From IMG/VR virus record IMGVR_UViG_3300045988_165521: DNA of 64,000 nucleotides; one strand, written 5' to 3'. The notes under the pieces were generated by a model that was not told where the DNA came from, did not search any database, and saw only the letters and a program-made list of their open reading frames with translations. Numbering within the stretch: position 1 is the stretch's first letter; the number at the start of each line of letters is the position of its first letter. Shown one piece after another: positions 3,471 through 21,446 of this stretch. The stretch is from a virus. A program made the position numbers and the translations under genes.

Positions 3471-3471
3471 G

Positions 3472-4626: not shown

Positions 4627-4698
4627 GCGTCGTTGGTGTTAGTGATAGCATATTAGACTTCCAATCTAAAGGGGAGAGTTTGAATCTCTTACGACGCT
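4627..4698 (+). tRNA. tRNA-Gly (anticodon TCC)
   Basis: Acceptor GCGTCGT/ACGACGC, anticodon arm TTAGA-CTTCCAA-TCTAA, T-arm GAGAG-TTTGAAT-CTCTT. Confidence 0.85.
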
Positions 4699-7051: not shown

Positions 7052-7413
7052 TGTTAATTGTATTTATTATAATATTCATAGCTTTATATGAACTAATAAC
7101 AGTTATGTATTATGAAAGTCTTAAGATAAGACTTGTCAAAGTAGGCGCTTTTATAGATCATCTTAATACTTTTGGTTCTACAGAAGATAAACAAATTTTC
7201 TATAAGTTTTTAAAAGAAGTTAATACAGAATCTATTAGATGCAATGCTAAACTTGATATAACTATAGAAAATGCAAGTAAACCTGAACTTTGGTACAGAT
7301 ATCCTTCAAATCCTAATACCTTTAAAGAGTGTTTCAAACTTTTTAATTTATGTTTTTATCGAAATGTAGTTAAAGATTCAGTTGATAAAATAATTAACTG
7401 GTTTAAGAAATAA
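7051..7413 (+). CDS. hypothetical protein (N-terminal TM helix)
   Basis: 120-aa ORF. Confidence 0.5.
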   Translation: MLIVFIIIFIALYELITVMYYESLKIRLVKVGAFIDHLNTFGSTEDKQIFYKFLKEVNTESIRCNAKLDITIENASKPELWYRYPSNPNTFKECFKLFNLCFYRNVVKDSVDKIINWFKK

Positions 7414-7417
7414 AAAT

Positions 7418-7636
7418 ATGAAATTTTTACTTTGTCTAATTTGTTTAATTACAGTTAGTTGTAATGCTGTAATTGATCCTAAGTCAGAAACTATAAGATC
7501 TGAAGATGGATACTATATTGGTACTGCACATAAATTTAAGTTTGAAGGACATGATTATATTAGTTTTACTAAAGGTCATGGTGTAGCAGTTGTTCATAAT
7601 CCTAAATGTCATTGTAATCTAAATGAAGACTATTAA
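7418..7636 (+). CDS. putative lipoprotein
   Basis: Signal peptide with lipobox-like LITVSC. Confidence 0.5.
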   Translation: MKFLLCLICLITVSCNAVIDPKSETIRSEDGYYIGTAHKFKFEGHDYISFTKGHGVAVVHNPKCHCNLNEDY

Positions 7637-7811
7637 AACATATTGCCCAGAATGTGACAAAGAAACAGTTCATATAATTTGGACGGAGGATGCATATGGA
7701 GCTTCTGGTGTAGCTAGAATCTTTTCAACTTTACTTTCTGTTGGAATGTCAAACTTAGCTTGTACTACATACAGTAAGTGTATTAGTTGTGGAAATACTA
7801 AAGAATTATAA
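7623..7811 (+). CDS. small zinc-ribbon protein
   Basis: CPEC...CISC pairs. Confidence 0.45.
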   Translation: MKTIKTYCPECDKETVHIIWTEDAYGASGVARIFSTLLSVGMSNLACTTYSKCISCGNTKEL

Positions 7812-7812
7812 A

Positions 7813-8076
7813 ATGATTAATGACCAAATTAAAAAGTTAGCTAATAAAAAGATTCCATTATATAATAACTCTTCTAGTTTATATGATATTTTGGATTGGC
7901 TGCGGGAGAAAAAATTCCTACATGTAGAGATACAATGGTATCCTCATGGTTGGATGTTTGTTATTTATAAAATTGATTCTCAAGAGGATGAACCATATGA
8001 TACTTTCTCTGAAGTATATACTAGTTATCTAAATTGTTTAGAAGCTGGAATTATAAGAGCATTAAATATTATATAA
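7813..8076 (+). CDS. hypothetical protein (tandem paralog of 8079)
   Basis: LYDILDWLREKKFLHVEIQWYPHGW parallels LHDILDELRDKESLHVEIGWHPNGY. ATG 7813 was chosen to avoid overlap. Confidence 0.55.
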   Translation: MINDQIKKLANKKIPLYNNSSSLYDILDWLREKKFLHVEIQWYPHGWMFVIYKIDSQEDEPYDTFSEVYTSYLNCLEAGIIRALNII

Positions 8077-8078
8077 TT

Positions 8079-8294
8079 ATGAAAAATACAGGTTTACATG
8101 ATATTCTGGATGAACTAAGAGATAAAGAGTCTTTACATGTAGAAATCGGATGGCATCCTAATGGATATGCATACTCTATTTATAGAATTAATAGGCGAGA
8201 TACAGAGCCGTGTTATGCTTCTTCTGAAAGATACCATAATTATCGGGAATGCTTAGGAGCGGCAATTGTAAAAGCAATGAACTTGGCGGATTAA
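8079..8294 (+). CDS. hypothetical protein (tandem paralog of 7813)
   Basis: See 7813. Confidence 0.55.
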   Translation: MKNTGLHDILDELRDKESLHVEIGWHPNGYAYSIYRINRRDTEPCYASSERYHNYRECLGAAIVKAMNLAD

Positions 8295-8299
8295 TAAAA

Positions 8300-8719
8300 A
8301 TGAAAACATTACTTTGGGTGGACGATGCTCGTAATCCTCTTGAGAATGATTGGTTAAATTTTAGTCCTATCGGTCGAAACTGTTTTGTAATATGGGCGCA
8401 AACTTATCAAGAAGCAATACAATTTCTTGAAAAAGACTGGCCTGATGCAATTTGTCTTGATCACGATTTAGGAGAAGAAGAAAGCGGTTATGATATAGCT
8501 AAATATATTGTAAATCGTTGTATTGATGAGGGAAAGAAACTTCCATTATTTGCAAGTCAATCTGCAAATCCTGTAGGTAGAGAGAATATCTTAAGATTGT
8601 TTAAAAATTATCAAAAACAGGAATTATTAGAACATGTTCAAGAAGCAGTTCAATATAAACATGATTGGTTAAATGCTGTTGAAAATGGTACAGAAATTCC
8701 CAAAAAGAGACGAATGTAG
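8300..8719 (+). CDS. receiver(REC)-like domain protein
   Basis: LLWVDD...DAICLDHDLG...GYDI pattern. The assignment is weak. Confidence 0.4.
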   Translation: MKTLLWVDDARNPLENDWLNFSPIGRNCFVIWAQTYQEAIQFLEKDWPDAICLDHDLGEEESGYDIAKYIVNRCIDEGKKLPLFASQSANPVGRENILRLFKNYQKQELLEHVQEAVQYKHDWLNAVENGTEIPKKRRM

Positions 8720-9032
8720 AATTCTTTATCATATAACCTTAAAAGAAAATTTAGATAGTATTTTAGATAAAGGACTTATTCCAGATATTGGTTCTCAGTG
8801 TACTCATTGTAAAAATGATAATCCAACTGAGAAGTTAGTTTATATGACTGATTTAGAAGGAATTGCTAAATGGAAGAAAGCGTTATATGGTAATAGTAAT
8901 TCTTGTGTAATTCTTGAAGTTAATACTCTTAATCTTGAAATAATCTATCGCAGAAAGTTTGTTGAAGGAACTGAATATGCATGTAAAGAAACTATTTTAC
9001 CTGACAGATTAAAGATTATAACTCTTAAATGA
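8685..9032 (+). CDS. hypothetical protein
   Basis: ORF ending at a TGA within an ATGA overlap. Start uncertain. Confidence 0.4.
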   Translation: MVQKFPKRDECRILYHITLKENLDSILDKGLIPDIGSQCTHCKNDNPTEKLVYMTDLEGIAKWKKALYGNSNSCVILEVNTLNLEIIYRRKFVEGTEYACKETILPDRLKIITLK

Positions 9033-9217
9033 AAAATTTTATTCAACATGTTGTTTATAGTCATAGAGAGGGATTACGTTGGTACTTTAAATCAACAGAG
9101 CGTAAAGGTACATTTGTAATTTCTTTATATCCTTGGGATATTAGACTTTTAAAATATGGACTTTATTTACTAATTCCACCTCTTAAAGAGACTCATATTA
9201 AAGGCAACTGGAATTAA
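9029..9217 (+). CDS. hypothetical protein
   Basis: 62-aa ORF. Confidence 0.35.
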   Translation: MKNFIQHVVYSHREGLRWYFKSTERKGTFVISLYPWDIRLLKYGLYLLIPPLKETHIKGNWN

Positions 9218-9226
9218 AAAAGGTAT

Positions 9227-9309
9227 GCCCACGCAGCAGAGTTGGAGATCTGCACGAAACTGTAAATTTCGCGTCTCAGACTAATGAGGTTCGAATCCTC
9301 ACGGGGGCA
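9227..9309 (+). tRNA. tRNA-Tyr (anticodon GTA)
   Basis: Anticodon arm CGAAA-CTGTAAA-TTTCG, long variable arm (bacterial type II), T-arm TGAGG-TTCGAAT-CCTCA. There is one A-G mismatch in the acceptor stem. Confidence 0.8.
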
Positions 9310-9332
9310 CAAAATAATAAAAATTGCAAATA

Positions 9333-9854
9333 ATGAAAAATTTTCAAGTAACTTCAAAAGAAGATAATCAAAAATACTGGATTTCGAGGTCTTGTGCAGT
9401 TGCTATGTTTCTATTTTCTAGAGATAAATTTGGAAACTTATGTATTTTAGCAAATAAACGTGGTACTGGAACTCCTGATTTTCAAGGATATTGGAATTGT
9501 CCTTGTGGTTATATAGACTTTGATGAAACTGGAGAAGATGCCGTTTGCAGAGAAATTATGGAAGAAACAGGATATGTAATTACTCCTGAAGTTCCTAAAT
9601 TTGTAGAGGTTGAAACAAGTCCAAAGGCTAATAAGCAAAATATTACTCTTAGATATACTGCTTTAGTACCTTATAAATTACTTTCTCAAGTTAAACCTAT
9701 TGGAGGCGAAGATAATGAAGTTGAAGAGGTTAAATGGATTGATATAAGAAAATTAAACAACTATAAATGGGCATTTAATCACAACAAAATAATTGAAAGA
9801 ATTATACTTTTAAAACAATATATACAAAATGACAGACATAAACACTTTAGCTAA
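9333..9854 (+). CDS. NUDIX hydrolase
   Basis: Nudix box GYIDFDETGEDAVCREIMEETGY. Confidence 0.8.
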   Translation: MKNFQVTSKEDNQKYWISRSCAVAMFLFSRDKFGNLCILANKRGTGTPDFQGYWNCPCGYIDFDETGEDAVCREIMEETGYVITPEVPKFVEVETSPKANKQNITLRYTALVPYKLLSQVKPIGGEDNEVEEVKWIDIRKLNNYKWAFNHNKIIERIILLKQYIQNDRHKHFS

Positions 9855-10386
9855 AAGTGGTTGGTATGAAACTAATCACGATAAGTATAAGTATGTTTAC
9901 TTAGAGCTTGATTATAGTAAAAAAATTAACAAGTTTGTATTTTCAGGCTGTTTAAGCCCTCAAGGGTTAGCTTATTTTCCACTTCCTAATCAAATTTATA
10001 GAGAACCAGATAGTGGAAATATGTTTTGTATCCCTTTTACATTATTTTCGCTTGTAAAATTTTGTGACGGGACTTTACTTCCACTAGTTTTAACTGAAGA
10101 CTTAGTAAAAAGGTACGCAGATCCTGAAAATATTGTTCTAACTTCTTTATGTATTAATATCTCTCGTTATGCAAGTAGTTTAGACTTTAGTACTATTCAT
10201 CTTACTCGAGATACTCCTTTAAGAAATCTCTTGAGTGAAGAGGCATTAAGAGTTGTTACTGGTAGTATGTTTGATTATTTTATGATAAGTGTATTAGAAC
10301 ATAAGAAGGAGTTTGATGAGCTTAACACTTCTCATTCAAATATAGAGTCTTTCATTAAGGTAATCTTAAAAATAATAGACTTATAA
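9829..10386 (+). CDS. hypothetical protein
   Basis: 185-aa ORF. Confidence 0.5.
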   Translation: MTDINTLAKSGWYETNHDKYKYVYLELDYSKKINKFVFSGCLSPQGLAYFPLPNQIYREPDSGNMFCIPFTLFSLVKFCDGTLLPLVLTEDLVKRYADPENIVLTSLCINISRYASSLDFSTIHLTRDTPLRNLLSEEALRVVTGSMFDYFMISVLEHKKEFDELNTSHSNIESFIKVILKIIDL

Positions 10387-10387
10387 A

Positions 10388-10705
10388 ATGTTTACTTTTA
10401 TTATTCTTTATTTTTTAAACTTAGTTCTAGATTATCCATTGCAAGGAACATTTCTTGCAGAATATAAATGTAAAAATAATTATATTTTATTTGTTCATTG
10501 TGCTATTTGGGCATTAGGTATTTATATTGCTTTATATTTTCTAGGGCTAGCTACAGTTTGGAAACTTGTAATGTTATTAGTTGGACATTATCTTATTGAC
10601 TACTGGAAATGTAGAGGCTTATATAAGAAATATATGAAAGACTTTACCGCTTATTATATTGATCAAAGTCTTCATATTGTTCAGGTTCTACTTTGTTTAA
10701 TATAA
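10388..10705 (+). CDS. hypothetical membrane protein
   Basis: Three hydrophobic segments. Confidence 0.5.
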   Translation: MFTFIILYFLNLVLDYPLQGTFLAEYKCKNNYILFVHCAIWALGIYIALYFLGLATVWKLVMLLVGHYLIDYWKCRGLYKKYMKDFTAYYIDQSLHIVQVLLCLI

Positions 10706-10732
10706 AACAAGTTCTATAAAAACTTGTTTTTT

Positions 10733-10821
10733 GGAGAGTTGGGGGAGTTGGCTTAACCCATCGTCCTGCTAAGACGACGTACCTCAAAAGGGTGCCACTA
10801 GTTCGAATCTAGTACTCTCCG
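10733..10821 (+). tRNA. tRNA-Ser (anticodon GCT)
   Basis: Acceptor GGAGAGT/ACTCTCC, anticodon arm TCGTC-CTGCTAA-GACGA, long variable arm. Confidence 0.85.
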
Positions 10822-10836
10822 CAAATTTAAAATAAC

Positions 10837-11103
10837 ATGAGTAAACTAATAATTAATAAACATCAAATTTGTTATATACCAGAATACAATTTATATTTAC
10901 AGAGAGTAGGAGTAGATAATACAAGCGTTCGTCATACTTGTGAACGTATATGTTCGATTTATCAGATCTGTAGGTATGGTTATTGTCGTAATAAGACTAT
11001 AGACCCACATTATGGTAATCATGGTTGCGCAGATAACGGAGAGCAAGACGCTTATAAAATTATTTGTTATAGAATATACTTAGAACCTATAGAATGGAAA
11101 TAG
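10837..11103 (+). CDS. Cys-rich small protein, tRNA-array paralog family (distal copy)
   Basis: Many Cys and the tail AYKIICYRIYLEP. It lies directly after tRNA-Ser. Confidence 0.5.
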   Translation: MSKLIINKHQICYIPEYNLYLQRVGVDNTSVRHTCERICSIYQICRYGYCRNKTIDPHYGNHGCADNGEQDAYKIICYRIYLEPIEWK

Positions 11104-11852
11104 CAAATTTAAAGGTATATAATGATAATATGCGAAAATCACTTTTAGATAAAGCATATTTTCTATCTTTTGTAGATTCGGATACGTTCATTGATTTTGG
11201 ATGTGCTGATGGATCTTTATTAAAATATATTCATGAGATGTTTCCTGATAAGAAACTAATTGGATATGATATATCTCCTGAAATGCTTCAAGTTGCAGAA
11301 AAGAATCTTGAAGGATGTAATGTTTCTTTATATAATAATTTTGAAAACGTTATATCCTTAAAGTTAGATAATGCTACTTTAATACTTTCTTCTGTTATTC
11401 ATGAAGTTTATAGTTACGGTGATAATCAAAGTGTAAATGAATTTTGGAGACAAGTTTTTAATGAAAACTTTAGATATATTGCTATTCGAGATTTAACTCC
11501 TCGAAAATCAATTGATAGAATGTCTGATATTAATGATGTTTCTAGAGTTTTACATAATGCTAATCCCACACATTTAGCTGAGTTTCAATCTATTTGGGGA
11601 AATATTAGTAACAATAAAAATCTAGTTCATTTCCTTATGAAATATAAATGGGTTGAAAATTGGGCTAGAGAAGTTAGAGAAAATTATTTTCCAATAACTA
11701 TCGAAGAGTTTTTATCAAAAGTTCCTAATAACTATGTTATTGATTATTTTTACGAATTTATTATGCCTCAAACTCAGCAAGGAATTCTTAAAGATTTTAA
11801 TATCCTATTAAAGGATACAACACACTTCAAATGCATTTTAAGAAAAATATAA
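11094..11852 (+). CDS. SAM-dependent methyltransferase
   Basis: Motif I FIDFGCADGSL. Confidence 0.6.
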   Translation: MEIANLKVYNDNMRKSLLDKAYFLSFVDSDTFIDFGCADGSLLKYIHEMFPDKKLIGYDISPEMLQVAEKNLEGCNVSLYNNFENVISLKLDNATLILSSVIHEVYSYGDNQSVNEFWRQVFNENFRYIAIRDLTPRKSIDRMSDINDVSRVLHNANPTHLAEFQSIWGNISNNKNLVHFLMKYKWVENWAREVRENYFPITIEEFLSKVPNNYVIDYFYEFIMPQTQQGILKDFNILLKDTTHFKCILRKI

Positions 11853-11853
11853 T

Positions 11854-12144
11854 ATGAAAGTAGTACAAGTAAATGTGGATTACACTGAAGAAGTTAATTC
11901 TTCGAATAAGAATTGGTTAAATTCTGATTCTAGGCATTGTGATATCTTAGTTAGAAGTGATGATGCAGAAACTATTAAGTATAGTGGAACTTTATCTCAA
12001 TCACAAGTAGAACATATCGTGTTTCTAATTCAAGATAATTATTCTGGAAAAGATATTAAAGATCAAATTATCGAATATGAAGTTCAAAATCTATCTCCTA
12101 CAGTAACTTCTCAGATTGGAGATCCTGAATTTTTAGAAGAATAA
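11854..12144 (+). CDS. hypothetical protein
   Basis: 96-aa ORF. Confidence 0.45.
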   Translation: MKVVQVNVDYTEEVNSSNKNWLNSDSRHCDILVRSDDAETIKYSGTLSQSQVEHIVFLIQDNYSGKDIKDQIIEYEVQNLSPTVTSQIGDPEFLEE

Positions 12145-12166
12145 TAGAGAGATTTACTCTCTATTT

Positions 12167-12253
12167 GCCCTCGTGATGGAACTGGCAGACATGCCGCTCT
12201 TAGAAAGCGGTCTGAAGTAATAGTAGGGTGCAGGTTCAAATCCTGTCGAGGGC
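12167..12253 (+). tRNA. tRNA-Leu (anticodon TAG)
   Basis: Acceptor GCCCTCG/CGAGGGC, anticodon arm CCGCT-CTTAGAA-AGCGG, long variable arm, discriminator A. Confidence 0.85.
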
Positions 12254-12298
12254 ACTCTAATAGCTTCCTATCTTGGAGGCATTTTCTATTTTATAGAT

Positions 12299-13042
12299 AT
12301 GTTTAAGTTTATTAAAAAGATGTTTAACAATAGAAATATTCTAACTAAAAACTTATATAAAGTAAAGTTAGATAAATATGATGAAGCTCTGATTATTATT
12401 TGTAAAGCTTTAGGAGTAAACTTACTAAAAGCAAATTTCTTCCATATAGATTCTTATACAAAAGTAATGAAATCATATGGCTCTTTGATAACTATTATTG
12501 ATTTTGATAATGCTATTGATTTAATTTTTGGTAATTTAAGTTCTAAAAGAAATCATGACGAAATTGTTTTACAATACATGATTAAGGTTATGCAGCTTCC
12601 TTCTAGTGTTATTGATAATGATAGATTTTATCGTAGTATTCATAGGACCTTTAATAAGATTTCTGTGTATTATTCTAAAGAAGATAAATTTACATGGTTT
12701 CAAGAATATTGTCAAAAATTTATAAAACCTGAATGGTCTAATTCTTTTTGCTTTTACTATAAATCTGCAGAATTTTATGTAACTTTTTATCAAGGATATT
12801 TTAAATATAAACGTAAACAGGAAGACTATCGAAGAAAAAGTAGAGAGAATTATCAATCTCAAAAACAACCTAATATAAATGAGTATTATAGAATACTTGG
12901 AATTAATATTACTAAAGATAAGGCTATTATCAAAACTGCTTATCGTAAGTTGTGTTTTCAGTATCATCCTGATAAAGGAGGCTCTAAGGAAAAGTTTATT
13001 GAAATTAATCAAGCATATGAATATTTAATTACACATGTCTAA
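12299..13042 (+). CDS. J-domain (DnaJ-like) protein
   Basis: C-terminal YYRILGI...AYRKLCFQYHPDKGG with the HPD motif. Confidence 0.8.
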   Translation: MFKFIKKMFNNRNILTKNLYKVKLDKYDEALIIICKALGVNLLKANFFHIDSYTKVMKSYGSLITIIDFDNAIDLIFGNLSSKRNHDEIVLQYMIKVMQLPSSVIDNDRFYRSIHRTFNKISVYYSKEDKFTWFQEYCQKFIKPEWSNSFCFYYKSAEFYVTFYQGYFKYKRKQEDYRRKSRENYQSQKQPNINEYYRILGINITKDKAIIKTAYRKLCFQYHPDKGGSKEKFIEINQAYEYLITHV

Positions 13043-13295
13043 AATGTATAAATTAATGAGTCTTAAAGGCTATAACGGGCCTGAAGATGTAATAAAACTT
13101 CAAGAATGGTTAGCTATAGAAAAACAAATATTTATTGAGACAAGAGTGTGTTGGAATAAAGAAGGAACTTTCCCTATTGGATATAGTGCAAGAGCTTGGA
13201 TGCCTCCGTATATATTATATACAGTAGCTCCAACAGAATTAACTATTGAAGAAGCAGTTATGGCAATTCTAGCAAGAATTTATGATTATATTTAA
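13035..13295 (+). CDS. hypothetical protein
   Basis: 86-aa ORF. Confidence 0.45.
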   Translation: MSKMYKLMSLKGYNGPEDVIKLQEWLAIEKQIFIETRVCWNKEGTFPIGYSARAWMPPYILYTVAPTELTIEEAVMAILARIYDYI

Positions 13296-13346
13296 ATAAT
13301 CTTGCTCCCGTAGTTCAAGGGATAGAAATTAATTTTTGATTCGAAC

Positions 13347-13378
13347 TTTGTATTTTTAATAAAATTTTTGTATCTTTG
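13347..13378 (+). promoter_or_regulatory. Bacteroidota-type promoter (TTTG-N20-TATCTTTG) for the HNH gene
   Basis: TTTG 13347-13350 and TAnnTTTG box 13371-13378, 28 nt upstream of ATG 13406. Confidence 0.55.
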
Positions 13379-13405
13379 TGTACGAAAATTTTAAATATAA
13401 AATAT

Positions 13406-14017
13406 ATGATAAGTTGAAAATTAGAAAAAGAAAATTTAATTAAGTTCCTTATTGATGAAAAATTAAGTTTTGAAGAAGTAGGTCGTAAGTATAAATGTAG
13501 TGGTAGCAATATTAGAAAAGTAGCACAACGTTTAAATATAATTGTTCCTTCTAGAAGAGCAGTAAATCCATGCGAAACTTTTAGAAGAGGAACTGCTAAA
13601 AAAGGTATCTGTAAGAACTGTGGAAAAGAATTTATATTATATTTATCTCATAGCGGAATTTATTGTAGTAGTAAATGTCAACAAGAGTACCAATCTAAGA
13701 AAAGATATGAATTAATTCTTAATGGAGATCCTTCTATTATGAGAGCTAATTATAACCCTAGATCATCTAAGAAGTATATATTAGAGGAACAGAATAATAA
13801 ATGTGCCATTTGTGGGATGGAACCCAGTTGAAATGGGAAAGAGTTAGTTTTTATTTTAGATCATATTGACGGTCATGCTTCTAATAATAAAAGAGATAAT
13901 TTAAGATGTATATGTCCTAATTGCGATTCTCAGTTGGATACTTACAAATCTAAAAATAAAAACGGAGACAGATATTATTATAGATACTATAAAAGTAGGA
14001 GTGACCAGAATGGATAA
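13406..14017 (+). CDS. HNH homing endonuclease (free-standing; 2 in-frame TGA)
   Basis: A single frame with TGA at 13415 and 13829. LDHIDGHASNN...NLRCICPNCDS motif. It is a paralog of ORF 4721, and its 3' end overlaps tRNA 13995 by 23 nt. Confidence 0.75.
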
Positions 14018-14081
14018 TGGACCAGACTTCTAATCTGGCGAGCTGCAATGCTCATTGCGGGTTCGACTCCCGCCTCCTATA
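13995..14081 (+). tRNA. tRNA with anticodon TCT (nominally Arg) but a type II long-variable-arm architecture
   Basis: Acceptor GTAGGAG/CTCCTAT (G1-U72), anticodon arm CCAGA-CTTCTAA-TCTGG, 18-nt variable region containing hairpin GAGC-TGCAAT-GCTC, T-arm GCGGG-TTCGACT-CCCGC, discriminator A. Confidence 0.7.
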
Positions 14082-14097
14082 CTAAATAAATATAACT

Positions 14098-14370
14098 ATG
14101 ATATTATATAAAGTTCAGAAATACTTTCCTACAGATTTTTCACAAAATTTTATAGAATGTAATATTTGTTCTATAGACAATTTTGAAAGAGAAAGTATAA
14201 AACATGCTATTCGCGATGGTCTTAAACCACATATTTGTTCAGGCATGTGTAGAGAATGTAATAATTTTATAGGTTTGATTGGAGTAGATCTTGAAAAACG
14301 AACAGGAACTGTAATATGTTCTCATAAAAATTATTACAGACTTGAATTTGATGAAAACGAAGGTGCATAA
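14098..14370 (+). CDS. hypothetical Cys-rich protein
   Basis: 90-aa ORF. Confidence 0.45.
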   Translation: MILYKVQKYFPTDFSQNFIECNICSIDNFERESIKHAIRDGLKPHICSGMCRECNNFIGLIGVDLEKRTGTVICSHKNYYRLEFDENEGA

Positions 14371-14380
14371 ATTATTATAT

Positions 14381-15238
14381 ATGAAATTATACGATTCAAC
14401 TGAAAACACATTTCATTGGGAAAAATTAGATTTAATCCCTGAAATAGAAAAACTAAAACGAATACCTCAAAATGAAATATGGCACAAAGAGGGTAATGCT
14501 TTTGTACATACTTGTATGGTTGTACAAAGTGCATTAGATCATATTTCAAATGAAACTATTGATTATTTAGCATCACCTGAAATTAGAGAAATTTTAGTAT
14601 ATGCTGCTTTATTGCATGATGTTGGCAAAGCTTTTACAACAAAGAAAGGAGAAGATGGCCTATATCATGCAAGTAACCATGCAATTAAAAGTGCAGAAAT
14701 TGCAAAAGATTTATTAGTTAAGTTAGAAGTAGATAAACATTTACATACAGCAATTATTTCATTAGTTCGCTGGCATATGCAGCCTATGTATATTCTTGAA
14801 CAGACAAATCCTGAAAAAGCTATACTAAAACTAGCTAATAATCTTAATGAAGTAAATGTAGAACTTTTAATTCTACTAAAACAATGTGATTGTGAAGGTT
14901 CAATCTACGATAAGGATGATCATCGAGACGAAATACTCCAAAAGGTAAGAGAGATTTATTATGATAAAATTACTTACAAACGTGGAGAAACCGTTAAAAT
15001 TACTAAGTTATCAGATAATGATACTTGTAGTTATGTTCCAGGACATCATCCTAATGGAATTAATACTGGATATGAAAAAATAGGTAGGCTAATTGAACCT
15101 ATTACAAAAGGACATAGAGTATATCTAGGACTTGGATTCTCTACATCTCCTGTTGTAGAAATTGTTAGCAAAAATTGTTTTAAAACAAGAAATTCTGTAT
15201 ATGAAATTACAGAAGTTTGTAAAACTACAGAAAAATAA
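14381..15238 (+). CDS. HD-domain phosphohydrolase
   Basis: H...LLHDVGK...H motifs. ATG 14381 was chosen. Confidence 0.6.
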   Translation: MKLYDSTENTFHWEKLDLIPEIEKLKRIPQNEIWHKEGNAFVHTCMVVQSALDHISNETIDYLASPEIREILVYAALLHDVGKAFTTKKGEDGLYHASNHAIKSAEIAKDLLVKLEVDKHLHTAIISLVRWHMQPMYILEQTNPEKAILKLANNLNEVNVELLILLKQCDCEGSIYDKDDHRDEILQKVREIYYDKITYKRGETVKITKLSDNDTCSYVPGHHPNGINTGYEKIGRLIEPITKGHRVYLGLGFSTSPVVEIVSKNCFKTRNSVYEITEVCKTTEK

Positions 15239-15249
15239 AATTTAATATA

Positions 15250-16029
15250 ATGCGTTATTTATTAGTAAAAACCGAAAACATGCCTATTTTGGCTCTGGCT
15301 CTTGGAAGTCTAGATTACAAAGCTGGAAACTCACCTATTTTTCCTATTGCATTTGGAGAATTCTCAATTTTAATTGATAAGGAGGATAAAACATTCTTCT
15401 ATGTTAAAGGTCGAAAAGAAATTGATAAATTTGTTGAAGATCATGCTAAAATCTATACAACTAATGATTTATCACATGCTCTTGAATTTCTTAAGGAAGA
15501 CGAAGATGAGGAAACCGATAAGTCTGAAGAAGATAAAGAGGAGATCGATCTTAAAACTATTTTTGAACATCCTTTAATGCAGGTTTTTAGTCGGCATATT
15601 CCTAAAGAGATTTTGGCTAAGTGTATTATGGAAGCTAAAGAAGAACGAGAACAGGAAGAAGAAAACGCTGCAGAGGAAAAATCTGAAGATAAAGAGTCTA
15701 ACTTCCATAAAGAGTTGGTACCTGGACGAATCGTTCAGTTTGAAAATGCAGGTATGATTCGGTATGGAATTGTACTTAGTAATGGTACAGTAATGCACTT
15801 TTCAGGAAGTAATTTAGCTGCTTCAGGATATATTAATAATATTACTGAAGATCGTCCTTATAGAGTTGTACGTATTCTTAAGCCTACAAGTAAATATTAC
15901 AATCTAAAGGATGTAAGTAATATGGAAGTAGCTTGGGAACGTAAAGTTCGCAAACCTAAAGTTACTAAAACAATAACCGAGATTGAAAAGGAATTAGGGC
16001 TTGCTCCTGGTTCGTTAGTCATTGAATAA
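15250..16029 (+). CDS. hypothetical protein with an acidic low-complexity centre
   Basis: 259-aa ORF. Confidence 0.5.
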   Translation: MRYLLVKTENMPILALALGSLDYKAGNSPIFPIAFGEFSILIDKEDKTFFYVKGRKEIDKFVEDHAKIYTTNDLSHALEFLKEDEDEETDKSEEDKEEIDLKTIFEHPLMQVFSRHIPKEILAKCIMEAKEEREQEEENAAEEKSEDKESNFHKELVPGRIVQFENAGMIRYGIVLSNGTVMHFSGSNLAASGYINNITEDRPYRVVRILKPTSKYYNLKDVSNMEVAWERKVRKPKVTKTITEIEKELGLAPGSLVIE

Positions 16030-16057
16030 GAGGGATTAATTCCCTCTTTTTGTTTTT
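16029..16057 (+). terminator. Rho-independent terminator
   Basis: AGAGGGA-TTAAT-TCCCTCT followed by TTTTTGTTTTT. Confidence 0.7.
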
Positions 16058-16063
16058 ATAAGT

Positions 16064-16201
16064 ATGGGTAAGTTTATTCGGGATTATCAAGTTGGTAAGA
16101 CATTTAGTAAAGAAGAGGAAACTTTTAAGCCTAATCGTAAAAAGGTAAAAAAGTTTAAAGACCCTGAAAAACGTGAAAAGAAACAATCTAAAAAAGATTA
16201 A
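16064..16201 (+). CDS. small basic protein
   Basis: 45-aa Lys-rich ORF. Confidence 0.35.
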   Translation: MGKFIRDYQVGKTFSKEEETFKPNRKKVKKFKDPEKREKKQSKKD

Positions 16202-16204
16202 AAG

Positions 16205-17245
16205 ATGACATATGGATTGAACGATATTTGTTTAGTACCTGCTAGGATTAGTGATATTGAACATCGTGAACAATGTAATCCATATAATGCTGATAATATG
16301 CTCCCGTTGTTTACTGCTCCTATGAGTTCAGTAATTAACGAGAGCAATTATCAGGTATTTATGGATAATAAAATAAATACTATAATTCCTCGTTCAGTAG
16401 ATTTATCTACTAGATATGAGTTAATGTCAAAAACTTTTGTGGCCTTAAGTTTATCTGAATTTGAAACATTTGCAGGTCTAGAATTAGGTGAAATTAAGGA
16501 GGAAGAAATATTTTATATATGCGTAGATATTGCTAATGGTCATATGCGTAAGCTTATTGATCTTTGTAAATCTGTAAAACAGAAATATGGAGGTCATGTT
16601 ATACTAATGGCAGGCAATATTGCAAATCCTGATACTTATATAGATTATGCCTTAGCTGGTATTGATTTTGTACGTGTTGGAATTGGTGGTGGATCAGTAT
16701 GTACTACTTCTGCAAATGGAGGAGTTCATTATGCTATGGCTTCTTTAATTAAAGAGGTTGTAGATCGTAAGTGGGAGATAGAAAAAGCAATTAAAGATGC
16801 AGAAGCTATGCGTATTTCCCATAAATATGAGTCTTTGCCATTTATTGTAGCTGATGGAGGATTTGATAATTATGATAAGATTATTAAAGCGTTAGCATTA
16901 GGTGCAGATTATGTAATGGTAGGCAAAATCTTTGCTCAAGCAGAAGAAGCTTGTGGTAAAGTAATAGAACATTGGGTACGAGGAGAGTATATTGCTCGAG
17001 ACCGAGTTTATTATGGGATGTCTACTAAAAAAGCTCAAGTAGAAACTGGAAGTCAAAAATTAAAAACAGCAGAAGGAATAGAAGTTACAGTACCTATTTT
17101 GTATCCTTTAAGTGGATGGTGTGAGAATTTTGTTCATTATCTTCGATCAATGATGAGTTATACAAACTCTTTTACACTTAGTGATTTTAAAAATACAGAA
17201 TATCGTATTGTTAGTCCTTCTGAATATTTATCATATTATAAGTAA
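16205..17245 (+). CDS. guaC: GMP reductase-like (IMPDH/GMPR family)
   Basis: 346 aa, with CVDIANGH, VGIGGGSVCTT, ADGG, GADYVMVG, YYGMS and AEG matching GuaC landmarks. Confidence 0.7.
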   Translation: MTYGLNDICLVPARISDIEHREQCNPYNADNMLPLFTAPMSSVINESNYQVFMDNKINTIIPRSVDLSTRYELMSKTFVALSLSEFETFAGLELGEIKEEEIFYICVDIANGHMRKLIDLCKSVKQKYGGHVILMAGNIANPDTYIDYALAGIDFVRVGIGGGSVCTTSANGGVHYAMASLIKEVVDRKWEIEKAIKDAEAMRISHKYESLPFIVADGGFDNYDKIIKALALGADYVMVGKIFAQAEEACGKVIEHWVRGEYIARDRVYYGMSTKKAQVETGSQKLKTAEGIEVTVPILYPLSGWCENFVHYLRSMMSYTNSFTLSDFKNTEYRIVSPSEYLSYYK

Positions 17246-18420
17246 TGGCAGAGATAATTTATTGTAAATTAACTGAAACTAGATCTCGAAGAACTTGGCA
17301 AATATTGCCTAAGCAGTATTTTCCTGACAAAACTCCTGTTTATGAATTAGCTGTATCTATTTCTCAGTATACAATTGATAGGGTACAACATCCTTTTGAT
17401 TGTATAGTTGGATTATATGCTAAACAGCTAAATTTTGCATCAACACAAAAGTATTATTCTTATTCTGGAGACGTATATTCAATAGCGGATAATCCTGAGG
17501 CAGATTCTGGATATCAAAAATACCTTAAAAATAGGGATAAGACTCCTGAAGAAATAGAAGAGGAAGAAGCTAAATTAAAGTCAAAAGTTTTATATCAAAT
17601 TAAAAATAATCCTGATATAGTTCCTATGTCTATTGATAAAGATGGTTTCTATATTAAGGATGAAACTTTTTATCTACTTACTCGAAATATTTATAAACGT
17701 GTAAATACAATGCTAACTGGTCCTACTGGATCTGGTAAAACACAAGTAGTAGAATTAATTTGTAAGCAATTAGGACTTCCTTGTACTATTTATGATATGG
17801 GTGCCATGCATGATCCTATATCAGACTTACTTGGTGTTCATCGTCTCGAAGAGGGGAAGTCTATCTTCGACTATGCTAAATTTACTCAAGATGTTCAAAA
17901 ACCTGGAGTTATTGTTTTAGATGAGCTGTCGCGTGCGCCTGCTACCTGCCTCAATATACTTTTTCCTGCTCTTGACCATCGTAGGACTTTGCCTGTAGAA
18001 ATTGCAGGTTCTAAGGATATTCGTGAAATTCCTATTCATCCTGAAGTATGCTTTATATCAACTTGTAATATTGGTATTGAATATACTGGTACCTCAACTC
18101 TTGATAAAGCATTAAAGAATCGTTTCTTCCCAATTGAATTTACATATCTTCCTGCAGACATTGAAGCTCGAGTTCTCATGAAGAGATGTGATATTGAGAA
18201 ACAGGATGCTGATATGATTACTTCTATTGCTGCTAAACTTCGTAGGATGGCAGAAAATGCAGAGGCTGCAACTACAGTATCAACTCGAGAAACTTTAATG
18301 ATTGCAGAATTAATTCATGATGGATGGTCAACATTAGATGCATTAAATTATGTATTAATTCCACTATGTGATAGTAAAGAGTCTCGAGAATTAGTACGAA
18401 AATTGTTAATGAGTAAATAA
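17245..18420 (+). CDS. AAA+ ATPase, CobS/MoxR-like
   Basis: Walker A GPTGSGKT, Walker B VLDELSRA. Confidence 0.6.
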   Translation: MAEIIYCKLTETRSRRTWQILPKQYFPDKTPVYELAVSISQYTIDRVQHPFDCIVGLYAKQLNFASTQKYYSYSGDVYSIADNPEADSGYQKYLKNRDKTPEEIEEEEAKLKSKVLYQIKNNPDIVPMSIDKDGFYIKDETFYLLTRNIYKRVNTMLTGPTGSGKTQVVELICKQLGLPCTIYDMGAMHDPISDLLGVHRLEEGKSIFDYAKFTQDVQKPGVIVLDELSRAPATCLNILFPALDHRRTLPVEIAGSKDIREIPIHPEVCFISTCNIGIEYTGTSTLDKALKNRFFPIEFTYLPADIEARVLMKRCDIEKQDADMITSIAAKLRRMAENAEAATTVSTRETLMIAELIHDGWSTLDALNYVLIPLCDSKESRELVRKLLMSK

Positions 18421-18421
18421 T

Positions 18422-20368
18422 ATGTCATTTACTGACTGGTTTGGGCGTAAAGGTAAGAATTATACATCTACTTATAAAGGATCTACTCGTTTAGGGTGGG
18501 ATACTAAAGTAAGTGGATCGTATTCTTCTTTCTTTGCACCTGATTTAAACAAAAGAAAGCTTTTAAGAGATTCCTATCGTCACGCATGTGATATTAGGGA
18601 TATTATGGATATTCCAAGAAATATTCGAATACAGTTAAATGTAGACACAGAAACTTCATGTACAGATGGAAAAACAGTTATTGTTTCTACTAAAGTATAT
18701 GATGATAATAAAATCGATAATAATGTTAAATTAGATGTATTCTTAGGTACAACTATTCATGAATTTTCTCACATATTATATACAGATATGGCAGAAATTC
18801 GTAAAAATAGACCTAATAAGTTCCTTTTTAATCTGTTCAATACTATTGAAGATGAACGAATTGAATACAATACTACACAAAATTATCCTGGGTATGCTAA
18901 TTTTATTGGGCAAGCAAAATATTATTATTTTGATTTGTTATATAAAAAAGCTGAAAAACAGGATGATTTAATGGATGTATTACAAAACATTTTATATATT
19001 GTAAGATATCCTGCAAGAGTAGATACTAAGGTTATTTATCGACATCAGGTTTTGTTTGATAAAATTAAGAAAGTTCTTTGTGACTTTGGAAATAATTCTA
19101 AAGAAGCTTATGATAAAGCAGAAAAAATTTATAAGCTATTACTAGATTACTTTAAGTTCCCACCTCCTCCGCCTGAAGAACAACAAGAAGGAGATGAAGA
19201 ACAAGATCAATCTGATTCTAGTGAAGGACAGTCTGATTCAGGTGAAGGCCAAGAAGGATCAGACGGAAGTTCTGACCCTCAAAATTCTAAACAGTCTTCT
19301 CAAAAACAAGATTCTAAAGATAATGAAGGATCAGATAAGAATAGTAAAACACAAAGTTCTCCCAAAAGTGGTTCTGATGAGGGATCTGCGGGCAAAAAGA
19401 AACAAGAACCTATTAAAGCATATACTCAAGAAGAAATAAAACAGGCAGCTGAGAAATTAGCTGAACAAATGCGACGTTTAATTACTTCTAATACTTCTTT
19501 AAATAGTAATGAAATTAAAGATGAGTGGGATTCTAAAGAAATTGCTGATGAGTGTAAGCAAATAAAAGATGATGTTTTTATTGTAAAACAAGAAGATTAC
19601 GAAAGACGTTATAAAGCGGATTTTGATACAGTAAAACAACATATTAATGGTTTAGTTAATACTTTTAGCAAATTCTTTGTTGAACAGGAATATCGTTTAA
19701 CAGGAATGCGAAGAGGTGTGCTAGATACTAATAAATTAGCTGAAGCTTATCAAGCAGTAGAAACTGTCTATTCAAATAAGTTTAAACGTACTACTCCTGG
19801 TTTAGATGTTTGTGTATTGATTGATGAGAGTGGCTCTATGAGCGGAACTAATATCGCATCTGCAAGAAAATGTGCAATATTACTTAATGAGGTATTTTTA
19901 CGTTTAAAGCAATGTGACTTTTATGTTTATGGTCATACTGCAGATAATCGACATATGGGAGAAGTTACTATTAATGTATATCGTGATCACTGGAATAGGA
20001 ACCGTTATGCTTTAGGTAAAGTTGAAAGTTATTCTAATAACAAAGACTCTGTTGCTATTGAAGAGACATATAAAATGGTTAGAAAGCAAACTTCGAAACC
20101 ACTTTTAATGTTTGTAATTTCTGATGGAGCACCTAATGCATATGGTTTAAGAGGACAACCTGCTGTAGAGGAAGTTAAAAAGGTAGTAAATAGAATTGAA
20201 TCAAATGGAGATACTCTAGTTTGTCAAATTGCTATTGAAAGCCACTTCCGACCTCAGGATATGTTTAATCATTATGTTGTCATGACAGATATGAATACTT
20301 TTCCAAGTGACTTATCTGGATACGTTATGAATACGTTAATATCTAAACTTAAAAGAGTAGATGTTTAA
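18422..20368 (+). CDS. vWA-domain protein, CobT-like
   Basis: A central acidic Ser/Gln-rich tract and a C-terminal MIDAS DESGSMSG. Confidence 0.6.
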   Translation: MSFTDWFGRKGKNYTSTYKGSTRLGWDTKVSGSYSSFFAPDLNKRKLLRDSYRHACDIRDIMDIPRNIRIQLNVDTETSCTDGKTVIVSTKVYDDNKIDNNVKLDVFLGTTIHEFSHILYTDMAEIRKNRPNKFLFNLFNTIEDERIEYNTTQNYPGYANFIGQAKYYYFDLLYKKAEKQDDLMDVLQNILYIVRYPARVDTKVIYRHQVLFDKIKKVLCDFGNNSKEAYDKAEKIYKLLLDYFKFPPPPPEEQQEGDEEQDQSDSSEGQSDSGEGQEGSDGSSDPQNSKQSSQKQDSKDNEGSDKNSKTQSSPKSGSDEGSAGKKKQEPIKAYTQEEIKQAAEKLAEQMRRLITSNTSLNSNEIKDEWDSKEIADECKQIKDDVFIVKQEDYERRYKADFDTVKQHINGLVNTFSKFFVEQEYRLTGMRRGVLDTNKLAEAYQAVETVYSNKFKRTTPGLDVCVLIDESGSMSGTNIASARKCAILLNEVFLRLKQCDFYVYGHTADNRHMGEVTINVYRDHWNRNRYALGKVESYSNNKDSVAIEETYKMVRKQTSKPLLMFVISDGAPNAYGLRGQPAVEEVKKVVNRIESNGDTLVCQIAIESHFRPQDMFNHYVVMTDMNTFPSDLSGYVMNTLISKLKRVDV

Positions 20369-20387
20369 TTTGTATATTTTCAGATTT

Positions 20388-20422
20388 TTTACTACCTTTG
20401 CTGTATAACTAAAGGTAGTAAA
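20388..20422 (+). other. 12-bp hairpin immediately upstream of the suppressor tRNA
   Basis: TTTACTACCTTT-(11 nt)-AAAGGTAGTAAA with no T-run after it. It could be a processing or regulatory element. Confidence 0.4.
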
Positions 20423-20424
20423 AT

Positions 20425-20862
20425 GCGAGCTTAGTGTAATGGTAGCACAGCGGTCTTCGAATTGGAGCACGCTTGGCGTGAAAATTGTGGCAAATTCGGT
20501 AAAAGCGAAATAAGATGATAAAAATCATGCGAATCAGCTTTCTAAGAAAGTCTAAGGTCCCGAAATATGGATAGCTGATAATACCGAGCTAAATTAGAGT
20601 AAAATACAGTAGAGAACATAGGCTGTCTATGCCGTGTAAAATAGGCGGAGTGCTTAGTAGGTCGAAAATTAAAGCCGTACACTTCTCTATGTATCCTACT
20701 TTACTCTATAAATGTGTAGAGACTAAATGCCACACTTGTATATCAAGCTGATATAGTCCAGACCACAAACAGTAAAACTGGTAGTGAAAACTATAGTGGT
20801 AAGCAAAACCGTATTGTAGGGCTCCAAACCCTACGGTCTCTGTTCGAATCGGAGAGCTCGTG
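20425..20862 (+). tRNA. Intron-containing opal-suppressor tRNA (anticodon TCA after splicing; exons 20425-20457 and 20804-20862)
   Basis: 5' half: GCGAGCT TA GTGT-AATGGTA-GCAC A GCGGT CTT. 3' half: CAAA ACCGT, 25-nt extra arm, CTCTG-TTCGAAT-CGGAG, AGCTCGT, G. The spliced anticodon loop is CTTCAAA. Confidence 0.8.
20458..20803 (+). mobile_element. Group I intron (IC3-like, ORF-less) in the tRNA anticodon loop
   Basis: The 5' exon ends in U and the intron ends in G. Guide TTGGAG (20462-20467) pairs with CTT (P1, U-G wobble) and CAA (P10). Core-like motifs CAAATTCGG (20491) and GTGTAGAGACTAAATGCCAC (20714). Confidence 0.75.
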
Positions 20863-20876
20863 CTAATAAGTTGATT

Positions 20877-21446
20877 ATGAGTAAGTTAAAGGAACAAATT
20901 CTTATTTTAAGAAGTGATAATAAAAGTTATAATGAAATTGCTAAGATACTTGGATGTAGCAAAAGTATTGTTGGATATTATTGTAATGATATAACTAATA
21001 GTAAACAACGAAAATCTACTTCATTATGACGTAATACACTTAAGGGGAGAATTAAATCTAGACTATGTACTTTTTGTGCTAGAATCTCTCATGGAGGTAG
21101 AAGAATCTCTAATAGAACATGACGTAAACGTTTAAGGAGATATATTGAACATTTTCAAAATAGAGGAACGAAGAGTTTAAATAAAATTAAGACTTTAGAT
21201 ATTATTAATAAATTTGGTACAAAAACAAAGTGCTATTTAACAGGTACTCCTATAGATTTAGAAAAAGATAATTATTGTTTTGATCATATAGTTCCTGTTT
21301 CTAAAGGTGGAACAAATGATTTGTCAAATTTAGGTATTACAATTCCTATTGCTAATTATTCTAAATCTGATTTAACAGTAGAAGAATATTTAGAATTATG
21401 TAAGAAAGTACTTGAACATTATGGTTATACCGTTAATAAGATATAA
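20877..21446 (+). CDS. HNH homing endonuclease (free-standing; 2 in-frame TGA)
   Basis: A single frame with TGA at 21027 and 21120. DHIVPVSKGGTNDLSNL...N motif. Confidence 0.75.

Follow-up and report, generated by a model that had tools for sequence, protein, structure and literature searches.

A Trp-like tRNA(UCA) gene of Zeta-group crAss-like phages, probably an opal suppressor, with its anticodon split by a predicted mobile group I intron of the IC3 type

The DNA analysed in this study is a stretch of 64,000 nucleotides (nt) from a virus (IMG/VR record IMGVR_UViG_3300045988_165521), here called the window, in which positions 20425-20862 hold a tRNA gene in two pieces. The locus is very probably an opal-suppressor gene of a Zeta crAss-like phage: a tryptophan (Trp)-like tRNA(UCA) into which a mobile IC3-type group I intron has inserted between nucleotides 34 and 35. 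The sequence anatomy, the homology to IC3 introns, the covariation, the existence of filled and empty alleles and the meaning of TGA as Trp are established. An interrupted opal-reading tRNA had been proposed at this place in a preliminary description made from the letters alone, and its coordinates, exon halves, 346-nt insert and motif positions were all correct on re-reading.

The segments 20425-20457 and 20804-20862 each make up one half of a tRNA, and once joined they carry a UCA anticodon. Because the intron splits it, the gene is invisible to tRNAscan-SE and ARAGORN, and no tRNA was called by ARAGORN or Rfam in the native DNA at 20425-20862. After splicing in silico, ARAGORN folded the resulting 92-mer into a 7/5 cloverleaf with the anticodon TCA, a long extra arm and the discriminator G73, in agreement with the ligated loop CTTCAAA predicted earlier. 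Of the possible 7-nt anticodon loops, CUU/...G/CAAA alone lets the 5' exon end in U and the intron in G, so the UCA anticodon is not an arbitrary choice. The intron mode of ARAGORN, run on the native locus, proposed a tRNA-Ala(CGC) with a 344-nt intron, which was rejected as it breaks the rule of U at position -1 and G at the last intron position (omega-G). The anticodon stem GCGGU/ACCGU is invariant, and the insertion between nucleotides 34 and 35 occupies the same slot as the 'Leu.3Ug' introns of tRNA-Leu(UAA), as had been recognized at the outset. The D arm of the split tRNA is of the class-I type and exon 2 does not encode the CCA end. A sigma-70 promoter scan gave no more matches than were obtained in shuffled sequence, and among GenBank phages neither the locus nor the tRNA had a close relative.

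IMG/VR and metagenome contigs yielded 29 distinct split alleles, whose introns measure 187, 341, 346, 360, 385, 606, 629 and 633 nt. Exon 1 is the same or almost the same in all of them. All 29 introns sit between CUU and CAAAACCGU and end in GUAAG, with U at -1 and G at omega, and the claim that the 5' exon ends in U and the insert in G thus holds for every allele. The close relatives found via the upstream VWA gene all have the intron at the same place and form two allele groups, told apart by the sequences of the acceptor, the T stem and the extra arm; further split alleles came from one scan of metagenomes for exon 1 without an uninterrupted loop after it. A scan for the uninterrupted anticodon arm revealed around 20 phage tRNA(UCA) genes of the same design that lack the intron. 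Five of the 32 matches to this anticodon-arm pattern proved to be coding DNA and were discarded, and the pattern GGTCTTCGNNTTGGAGCAC gave three chance matches in coding DNA (L052-L054).

The intron-less allele reads GGTCTT^CAAAACCGT at the insertion point, and uninterrupted near-identical alleles score 52-62 bits with the Rfam tRNA model, for which the gathering threshold is 29. The uninterrupted allele L044 is nearly identical to the exons of group 2, and in L043, also uninterrupted, the tRNA lies in the syntenic position beside the homologue of g21746. The members of the filled/empty pair L084/L048 are collinear at 81-97% identity apart from a gap of 606 nt, whose start falls exactly behind nucleotide 33 of the tRNA. 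A synteny walk from the helicase failed; the relative reached, at 56% identity, had no tRNA within 10 kb.

By its sequence the insert at 20458-20803 is a group I intron like those of bacterial tRNA genes, IC3-like in family. Its likeness to the core of the Azoarcus and other IC3 introns, pointed out in the preliminary description, was upheld. Bacterial genomes were scanned for the P7-J7/3-P3' motif, with a degeneracy that spans the window intron and the Azoarcus sequence. The scan returned more than 120 bacterial loci, mostly from Betaproteobacteria, and in all 67 usable loci GTGTAGAGACTAGACGGCAC lies inside introns of 190-223 nt in tRNA(CAU) genes. The classical tRNA-Ile intron has been placed in IC3 (PMC3984707), and the IC3 label of the bacterial set is taken from the literature rather than from a subgroup classifier. 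In the window intron the core motifs CAAATTCGG and GTGTAGAGACTAAATGCCAC are found at 20491 and 20714, respectively, and J3/4-P4 (CAAAUUCGG) lines up with the bacterial IC3 core. The 187-nt intron of the phage allele L086 aligns with the bacterial tRNA(CAU) introns over the whole core, and its P4 covaries with theirs.

A covariance model (R1) trained on 31 intron cores from betaproteobacterial tRNA(CAU) genes, with no phage sequence among them, finds the phage versions: 55.1 bits (E=9e-12) for L086, 38.7 bits (E=1e-7) for the suppressor intron of L064, 32.7 bits (E=3.5e-6) for L084 and 24.7 bits (E=3.6e-4) for L128. The introns of the window and L086 are themselves related through collinear blocks at three places, namely the guide, a J8/7-P7'-P9 stretch of 18 nt that matches exactly, and the 3' end; the blocks sum to 80.8 bits, whereas 200 shuffles reached 60.9 at most. 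In addition, nhmmer with the bacterial core gave two weak collinear matches in the window intron. Short GenBank matches to this intron fall within recognized phage introns. Parts of it are 86-89% identical to the DnaB intron of Kolpuevirus, a cultured crAss-like phage, and to the DNA polymerase III alpha intron of Enterococcus phage EF1, which is annotated 'Phage intron'; the Kolpuevirus intron holds a GIY-YIG gene and its 3' end is 89% identical to the P9 domain.

A structure model consisting of P1, P2, P3, P4, three P5-region hairpins, P6 and its extensions, the P7 pseudoknot, P8, P9 and the tRNA stems was evaluated on 22 distinct sequences. The proposed pairs are kept in 97.5% of cells compared with 33-40% when the 3' partners are slid, and 19 pairs are altered on both sides. 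The covariation score of 0.158, against 0.079 in shuffles, was reached by none of 500. Compensatory changes were observed in P3 (G-C/A-U twice and C-G/U-A once), P6/P6a, P9 (where the outer helix appears as C-G, U-G and U-A) and the acceptor and T stems of the tRNA; acceptor pair 2-71 changes from C-G to G-C in 8 of the 22 rows and the T stem has double changes at four pairs. In the independent intron types B and C, P4, P7 and P8 are different yet complementary, and P8 in particular has other sequences that remain self-complementary. A minimum free energy (MFE) fold, which uses energy only, regains P2, P3, P4, the P5-region hairpins, P6 and P9 (z = -3.3).

The features of the locus are listed in Table 1. 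The guide TTGGAG (20462-20467) would serve both exons, since its GGAG forms P1 and its UUG (20462-20464) pairs with CAA of exon 2 (20804-20806) to give P10. This double pairing, including the U-G wobble, had been proposed before; all four P1 pairs were found to be invariant in the 22 rows and retained in types B and C. The P1 loop ranges from 4 nt to around 500 nt with an open reading frame (ORF) among other alleles, always with the pairing retained, and P10 is weaker in the L064-type intron, where the guide is UUCGGAG. The P6 extension is peripheral, being replaced by unrelated sequence in L133 and L139 and absent from L086. The GAAA loop of P9 is retained over other stems (CAAU/AUUG and CAGU/ACUG) in other alleles. 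Helices P7.1 and P7.2, which mark the phage introns of subgroup IA, are absent: the P3 3' strand (20728-20734) abuts P8 (20735-20747) directly. An 11-nt tetraloop receptor was considered for the P5 region and dropped, as the covarying pair 20558-20571 (U-A, but C-G in L107) implies another helix; a canonical CCUAAG...UAUGG receptor could be seen in one place only, P8 of the L064-type intron.

Table 1. Position of the split tRNA gene, the elements of its predicted intron and the adjacent gene in the window
Feature	Position	Strand	Description
tRNA exon 1	20425..20457	+	acceptor 5' GCGAGCT; D arm GTGT-AATGGTA-GCAC; anticodon stem 5' GCGGT; loop C32 U33 U34
Group I (IC3-like) intron	20458..20803	+	346 nt, no ORF; starts CGAATTGGAG, ends GGTAAG; omega-G at 20803
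P1 hairpin	20455..20467	+	CUU/C (20455-20458) with GGAG (20464-20467); U34.G wobble at 5' splice site
P2 hairpin	20468..20480	+	CACGC-UUG-GCGUG; C-G to U-G in 10 rows; also in MFE fold
P3 5' strand	20486..20492	+	UGUGGCA; partner 20728-20734; 3 of 7 pairs with compensatory double changes
P4 and enlarged P5 region	20495..20588	+	UUCGGU (20495-20500) with ACCGAG (20583-20588); encloses three hairpins (20515-20579)
P6 and extension of about 110 nt (P6a-c)	20595..20708	+	7 pairs with double changes; also in MFE fold
J6/7, P7 5' strand, J7/3, P3 3' strand	20714..20734	+	P7 5' strand G-A-GACU (20719-20724); J7/3 AAA; P3 3' strand UGCCACA (20728-20734); aligns with bacterial IC3 GUGUAGAGACUAGACGGCAC
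P8 hairpin	20735..20747	+	CUUG-UAUAU-CAAG; from Rfam alignment and structure model
J8/7 and P7 3' strand	20748..20759	+	CUGAUAU and AGUC(C); pseudoknot with 20719-20724
P9 domain	20763..20803	+	outer CCAC/GUGG; hairpins CAG-UAAAA-CUG and UAGU-GAAA-ACUA (GNRA tetraloop); then UAAG with omega-G
tRNA exon 2	20804..20862	+	C35 A36 A37 A38; stem 3' ACCGU; extra arm; T arm CUCUG-UUCGAAU-CGGAG; acceptor 3' AGCUCGU; G73
Long extra (variable) arm	20813..20837	+	stem GUAGGG/CCCUAC; loop CUCCAAA (20822-20828) = tRNA-Trp(CCA) anticodon loop
Free-standing HTH + HNH gene, candidate homing endonuclease	20877..21446	+	Pfam HNH_4 23.7 bits, HTH_38; two in-frame TGA

The window belongs to a Zeta-group crAss-like gut phage that reads TGA as Trp. 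It has 29% G+C, and with TGA as a sense codon the share of the window in long open frames rises from 0.71 to 0.87. Its sequence matches IMG/VR contig 3300014793_000001 (174,492 bp), and OKSC01000019.1 (175,041 bp) carries a split-tRNA allele identical to that of the window. OKSC01000019 has been assigned to the crAss-like subgroup zeta_11 with the translation 'TGA|w' (Yutin et al., 2021; PMC7886860). In the same tables OKSC01000019, OGYM01000002 and OLVX01000015 are all 'TGA|w' with no suppressor tRNA listed, and genomes of zeta_11 and zeta_12 appear without a detected suppressor; the Zeta group was noted there for its intron density as well (Yutin et al., PMC7886860). Besides the split gene, the window showed no tRNA(UCA), nor was one seen in the 10 kb upstream in relatives.

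The use of TGA changes at the tRNA. Genes at 5477-20368 contain 3 in-frame TGA and 49 TGG codons, compared with 63 and 85 in genes at 20877-59314 (Fisher p = 3e-7), and the two codons summed make up a steady 1.1-1.3% of codons on both sides. The split tRNA sits exactly at this boundary from the TGA-poor to the TGA-rich block, on the same strand. It was also observed that the recoded downstream genes include replication genes (helicases, a primase-like protein, ribonucleotide reductase (RNR), ligase and polymerase), beyond late genes.

The identity of the inserted amino acid, which the preliminary description did not name, is indicated by both codons and tRNA. When relatives were compared, TGA and TGG replaced one another at 13 homologous sites; no other codon took the place of TGA at more than 2-3 sites, and serine (Ser) codons never did. 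In a comparison of TGA positions with solved structures, in which RNR alone was informative, position 229 of RNR aligns with W in two solved class II reductases. The TGA positions X14, X64, X157 and X365 of the helicase fall in columns with at least 90% W, in relatives that are themselves recoded; a tally of W at TGA positions in database proteins was dropped as biased, the relatives there being recoded too. The tRNA itself is Trp-like, and neither a selenocysteine (Sec) nor a Ser tRNA, as judged from its features. G73 is present in 25 of the 25 long-arm alleles, many of which have A1-U72 or G1.U72, G2-C71 and G3-C70, and the anticodon arm CGGUCU(C/U)CAAAACCG is like that of bacterial tRNA-Trp. 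Furthermore, the 3' half has 87.5% identity to a tRNA-Trp(CCA) attachment site. With 7 bp in the acceptor stem, 5 bp in the T stem and a D stem of 4 bp that closes a 7-nt loop, the tRNA does not have the build of tRNA-Sec (8/5, with a 6-bp D stem).

Other small RNAs of these phages may be mentioned here. The window encodes a tRNA-Gly(UCC) at 4627-4698, detected by Rfam and missed by default ARAGORN; a tRNA-Arg(UCU) of 88 nt with an odd long extra arm at 13995-14082; and a 73-nt tRNA at 1868-1940 that ARAGORN labels Ser(GGA) despite its missing long arm. Transfer-messenger RNA (tmRNA) is encoded in L160 (2357-2735), L084 (8707-9130, minus strand) and L048 (714-1153, minus strand), with scores of 74-100 bits, and in two of those phages it adjoins the suppressor tRNA, which deserves note given the reassignment of a stop codon. 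In L086, on a 273-kb contig, an element resembling the c-di-GMP-I-GGC riboswitch (10453-10528; 54.5 bits, gathering 59) lies just downstream of the split tRNA.

The insertion site has at least three putative homing endonucleases in or near it, none related to another. The window intron itself has no ORF, and the HTH + HNH gene starts 14 nt past the tRNA. This gene occurs only beside group-1 alleles and is missing in group 2 and in L009, whose intron is identical. In L084 the P1 loop holds a PD-(D/E)XK endonuclease gene (PF11645, PDDEXK_5, 63.7 bits), and in the L064-type intron it holds an EndoVII/HNH-like ORF (a weak match) with in-frame TGA codons. Kinship of the window HNH protein with the latter ORF was considered and rejected, the two being unrelated on comparison. 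Phages with only 71% identity in the adjacent protein have tRNA-intron cassettes that are 97-99% identical, which suggests lateral spread of the cassette.

Introns and endonucleases were seen at other places in these genomes too. On the reverse strand of L064 (about 7571-8445) lies a tRNA-Leu(UAG) that has, again between nucleotides 34 and 35, an intron of about 793 nt containing an HNH-like ORF. The core of this intron (plus-strand 1987-2203) scores 50.6 bits with the bacterial-IC3 model, and the suppressor is accordingly not the sole split tRNA. A tRNA-Lys(UUU) of L084 (8186-8669; compare L048 640-712) has a 484-nt insertion after U36 with a PD-(D/E)XK-like protein inside, in which no group I core was recognizable and whose end is not G. 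The thyX gene of the window is apparently split (51065-52600): the ORF at 51065-51601 corresponds to the N-terminal part of Thy1 only, and behind it come an HNH-like ORF (51733-52509) and a match to the IC3-like core (52447-52489). Two GIY-YIG + NUMOD1 homing endonuclease genes, each with in-frame TGA, lie at 50036-50824 and 55169-56021 of the window, and a weak group I core match (55924-56021) comes directly after the second. The AAA/MoxR gene upstream of the tRNA (window 17245-18420) is split by an insert of about 1.07 kb in L004, L006 and L013 (about 3440-4517), in which the bacterial-IC3 model scores 18.8 bits at L006 4292-4415.

Several observations weigh against the identification of the locus as a suppressor gene split by a mobile IC3-type intron. 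In the search of the insert with the Rfam group I model (Intron_gpI, RF00028), proposed earlier as a check, the window intron was not matched at the gathering score of 50 bits, and in a 601-nt search with permissive filters it reached 19.8 bits (E=0.01). This sub-threshold match aligns the core parts J3/4-P4, P7-J7/3-P3' and J8/7-P7', with its 5' end misaligned onto an upstream hairpin (20387-20420). The introns of L086, L084, L064 and L128 were likewise unmatched by this model at E<=0.01. The Rfam group I seed holds no bacterial sequence, and scores of 18-20 bits were used inside split tRNA calls in a bacterial survey (Williams, 2020).

The good R1 scores also belong to the shorter homologues at the same site, and the window copy is weak, with 14.5 bits (E=0.13) in a 158-kb search. 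When only 20400-20900 was searched, the same 14.5 bits corresponded to E=4e-4 and a second, collinear partial match appeared (8.1 bits, E=0.016). The low score is attributed to the insertions of about 80 nt in P5 and about 110 nt in P6 that interrupt the core. Within the window intron type P1, P4, P7 and P8 are invariant, so that their support there comes from sequence similarity and from comparison with the other types, and one P5-region pair is broken in 6 of the 22 rows. Homing by the neighbouring HNH enzyme is suggested by its distribution only. As for UGA decoding, the direct scan for other decoders covered 64 kb of about 174 kb, the remainder being covered by the published tRNAscan table, which also has one 'Undet' tRNA for these genomes (Yutin et al., PMC7886860).

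From the sequence we infer splicing activity, charging by tryptophanyl-tRNA synthetase (TrpRS) and homing, which would proceed as follows. The precursor would be transcribed and the intron would fold, the guide GGAG pairing with CUU/C to place a U.G wobble at the 5' splice site, where an external guanosine would attack. The guide would then align CAA of exon 2 in P10, and omega-G 20803 would be displaced while the exons join and the anticodon loop CUUCAAA is restored. The mature tRNA would be charged with Trp, presumably by the host TrpRS, and would read the in-frame TGA codons that start immediately downstream. With the intron present and no other suppressor on record, UGA decoding would depend on ribozyme splicing. 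The intron itself would be a selfish homing element settled in a highly conserved DNA target, the anticodon arm, and no dedicated regulator. The intron-less relatives, the size range of 187-633 nt and the three unrelated endonucleases point to such a selfish homing pattern.

The preliminary description had gone further and proposed that splicing could gate or time the code switch. On such a view the intron would be kept because the speed or the conditions of self-splicing hold back the suppressor tRNA and thereby set the moment of change from standard-code to TGA-containing genes. The position of the tRNA at the exact border of TGA-free and TGA-rich blocks on one strand is compatible with such a gate, as is the obligatory role that splicing would have in genomes with no other suppressor listed. 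The in-frame TGA codons of the intron-linked endonuclease ORFs would add a loop of dependence, and the guide could conceivably pair with the extra-arm loop in competition with its exon partners. However, near-identical tRNAs do without the intron in related phages, and the free variation of intron size and peripheral domains, together with the three unrelated endonucleases, is what selfish homing would leave rather than a selected timer. No signal-sensing element was found, the location at the boundary is explained equally well without the intron, and other tRNAs, such as the Leu(UAG) of L064, are split too, so that the intron is not specific to the code switch. A regulatory gate is thus unlikely, and the earlier proposal is left unsupported.

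It is very improbable that the insertion killed the tRNA gene and that UGA is read by something else, such as a host tRNA, an undetected phage tRNA or altered release-factor activity. Splicing is a prediction, the window copy scores poorly with generic models and an 'Undet' tRNA exists elsewhere in these genomes, all of which would fit a dead gene. The exons of intron-bearing alleles are nevertheless under purifying selection, with compensatory changes in the acceptor stem (one pair), the T stem (four pairs) and the extra-arm stems. No variation is seen in the U.G wobble, the guide or omega-G, and the intron core covaries. These genomes are also heavily recoded for TGA with no other suppressor on record, and the searches of the window and of the 10 kb upstream in relatives gave no second tRNA(UCA).

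Just as improbable is a spliced and functional tRNA that serves seryl-tRNA synthetase (SerRS), so that UGA would mean Ser or Sec: ARAGORN does label the product SeC, from its anticodon and long arm, and extra-arm size and G73 are identity features of tRNA-Ser (PMC9976931), but the 7/5 geometry and class-I D arm do not fit bacterial tRNA-Sec, the acceptor and anticodon arms resemble tRNA-Trp, the C2-G71 pair of the window allele is an antideterminant for E. coli SerRS (PMC9976931), and TGA occupies Trp-conserved columns, swaps with TGG and never with a Ser codon, and rises in use as TGG falls.

For the suppressor tRNA favoured here, the extra arm may bear on charging. Bacterial TrpRS recognizes G73, a first pair A1-U72 or similar, and C34, C35 and A36 (PMC9976931). 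The decoding anticodon is U34 C35 A36 and not the C34 C35 A36 of tRNA-Trp; CCA appears in the extra-arm loop instead. This loop has UCCAAA in 25 of the 25 long-arm alleles, over 15 different stems and with or without the intron (the set includes L027, L028, L031, L035, L039, L043, L044, L047 and L048). It is usually CUCCAAA, and the loop of the phage's own tRNA-Trp (1406-1478) is CTCCAAA. Given this conservation and the role of C34, C35 and A36 as TrpRS determinants, the extra arm could be a second, non-decoding 'identity anticodon' shown to the host TrpRS or to another Trp-specific factor, an idea that is put forward tentatively. If true, the triplet seen by the synthetase would be separated from the triplet seen by the ribosome (UCA, restored by splicing). 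No published description of an extra arm with a Trp anticodon loop was found in literature searches.

A further property of this loop concerns the guide. TTGGAG (20462-20467) is fully Watson-Crick complementary to CUCCAA of the extra-arm loop (20822-20827), better than to CUU and CAA, because the extra-arm loop and the anticodon loop differ at a single base.

The components of this arrangement are well known singly: bacteria and plastids have group I introns in the anticodon loops of their tRNAs, phages have mobile group I introns, and recoded phages have suppressor tRNAs. The IC3 introns of bacteria and plastids comprise those of tRNA-Leu(UAA) in cyanobacteria and chloroplasts ('Leu.3Ug'), tRNA-Ile(CAU) in Azoarcus and other Betaproteobacteria ('Ile2.5Ug'), tRNA-fMet and tRNA-Arg. 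The phage intron shares with them the anticodon-loop site, the U at -1 in a U.G wobble and omega-G, and its slot (CUU/...g/NAAA, nucleotides 34/35) is that of tRNA-Leu. Its core aligns with the betaproteobacterial tRNA(CAU) introns over P3-J3/4-P4, J5/4-P4', P6, J6/7-P7, P3', P8 and J8/7-P7'. The lack of P7.1/P7.2, the GAAA loop of P9 and the PD-(D/E)XK endonuclease in one allele are further points of likeness; the tRNA-fMet intron of Synechocystis encodes the PD-(D/E)XK endonuclease I-Ssp6803I. In contrast to the known IC3 introns, the host is a phage and not a bacterium or plastid, the split gene is a stop-codon suppressor and not a sense tRNA, and the model scores of the window copy are lowered by its large insertions in P5 and P6. 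Also unlike them, some alleles have an endonuclease ORF in the P1 loop, and a free-standing HNH gene lies alongside.

The mobile introns of other phages (T4 td, nrdB and sunY, the DNA polymerase introns of SPO1 and Bastille, and those of Twort, crAss-like phages and Jug) are similarly phage-borne and patchy among close relatives, and are accompanied by HNH, GIY-YIG or PD-(D/E)XK homing endonucleases; candidate endonucleases lie around this intron as well. Unlike them, the window intron interrupts a tRNA. According to a 2014 review, all phage introns then known were in protein-coding genes, despite the many tRNA genes of phages (PMC3984707), and no later report of a phage tRNA intron was found in literature searches. 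The large bacterial survey of tRNA introns left phages out (Williams, 2020).

Suppressors of recoded phages (crAss-like, Lak, Agate, Jade and others) resemble the present one as phage tRNA(UCA) genes for TGA to Trp in a standard-code host, located beside recoded genes. A ribozyme has a precedent in this context, as theta (HDV-like) ribozymes take part in the production of phage suppressor tRNAs (PMC10879173); in those cases the ribozyme flanks the tRNA, whereas here it lies inside the anticodon. Compared with the canonical tRNA-Trp(CCA), a class I tRNA with a short variable loop, the phage tRNA has an extra arm of 25-27 nt whose loop repeats the Trp anticodon loop. It is like bacterial tRNA-Trp in G73, in A1-U72 or G1.U72 and, in group-2 alleles, in G2-C71/G3-C70. 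The combination of phage, suppressor tRNA and group I intron is absent from the searchable literature, in line with the earlier remark that the arrangement was undescribed, and no phage tRNA genes with group I introns seem to have been known before.

Suppressors were detectable in only 35% of TGA-recoded genomes in one survey (Borges et al.), and recoded genomes without a detectable suppressor have been noted by Yutin et al. (PMC7886860) and in a 2025 paper on Zeta crAss-like phages (PMC12386605). None of the three explained the absence. A suppressor split by an intron is missed by tRNA finders, which accounts for the gap in zeta_11 and zeta_12. Phage annotation and genetic-code prediction should hence include searches for split tRNAs. 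Engineering of orthogonal suppressors could also draw on this naturally occurring class of tRNA, whose extra arm is Trp-anticodon-like. In an abundant phage lineage of the human gut, the decoding of UGA would hinge on ribozyme chemistry.

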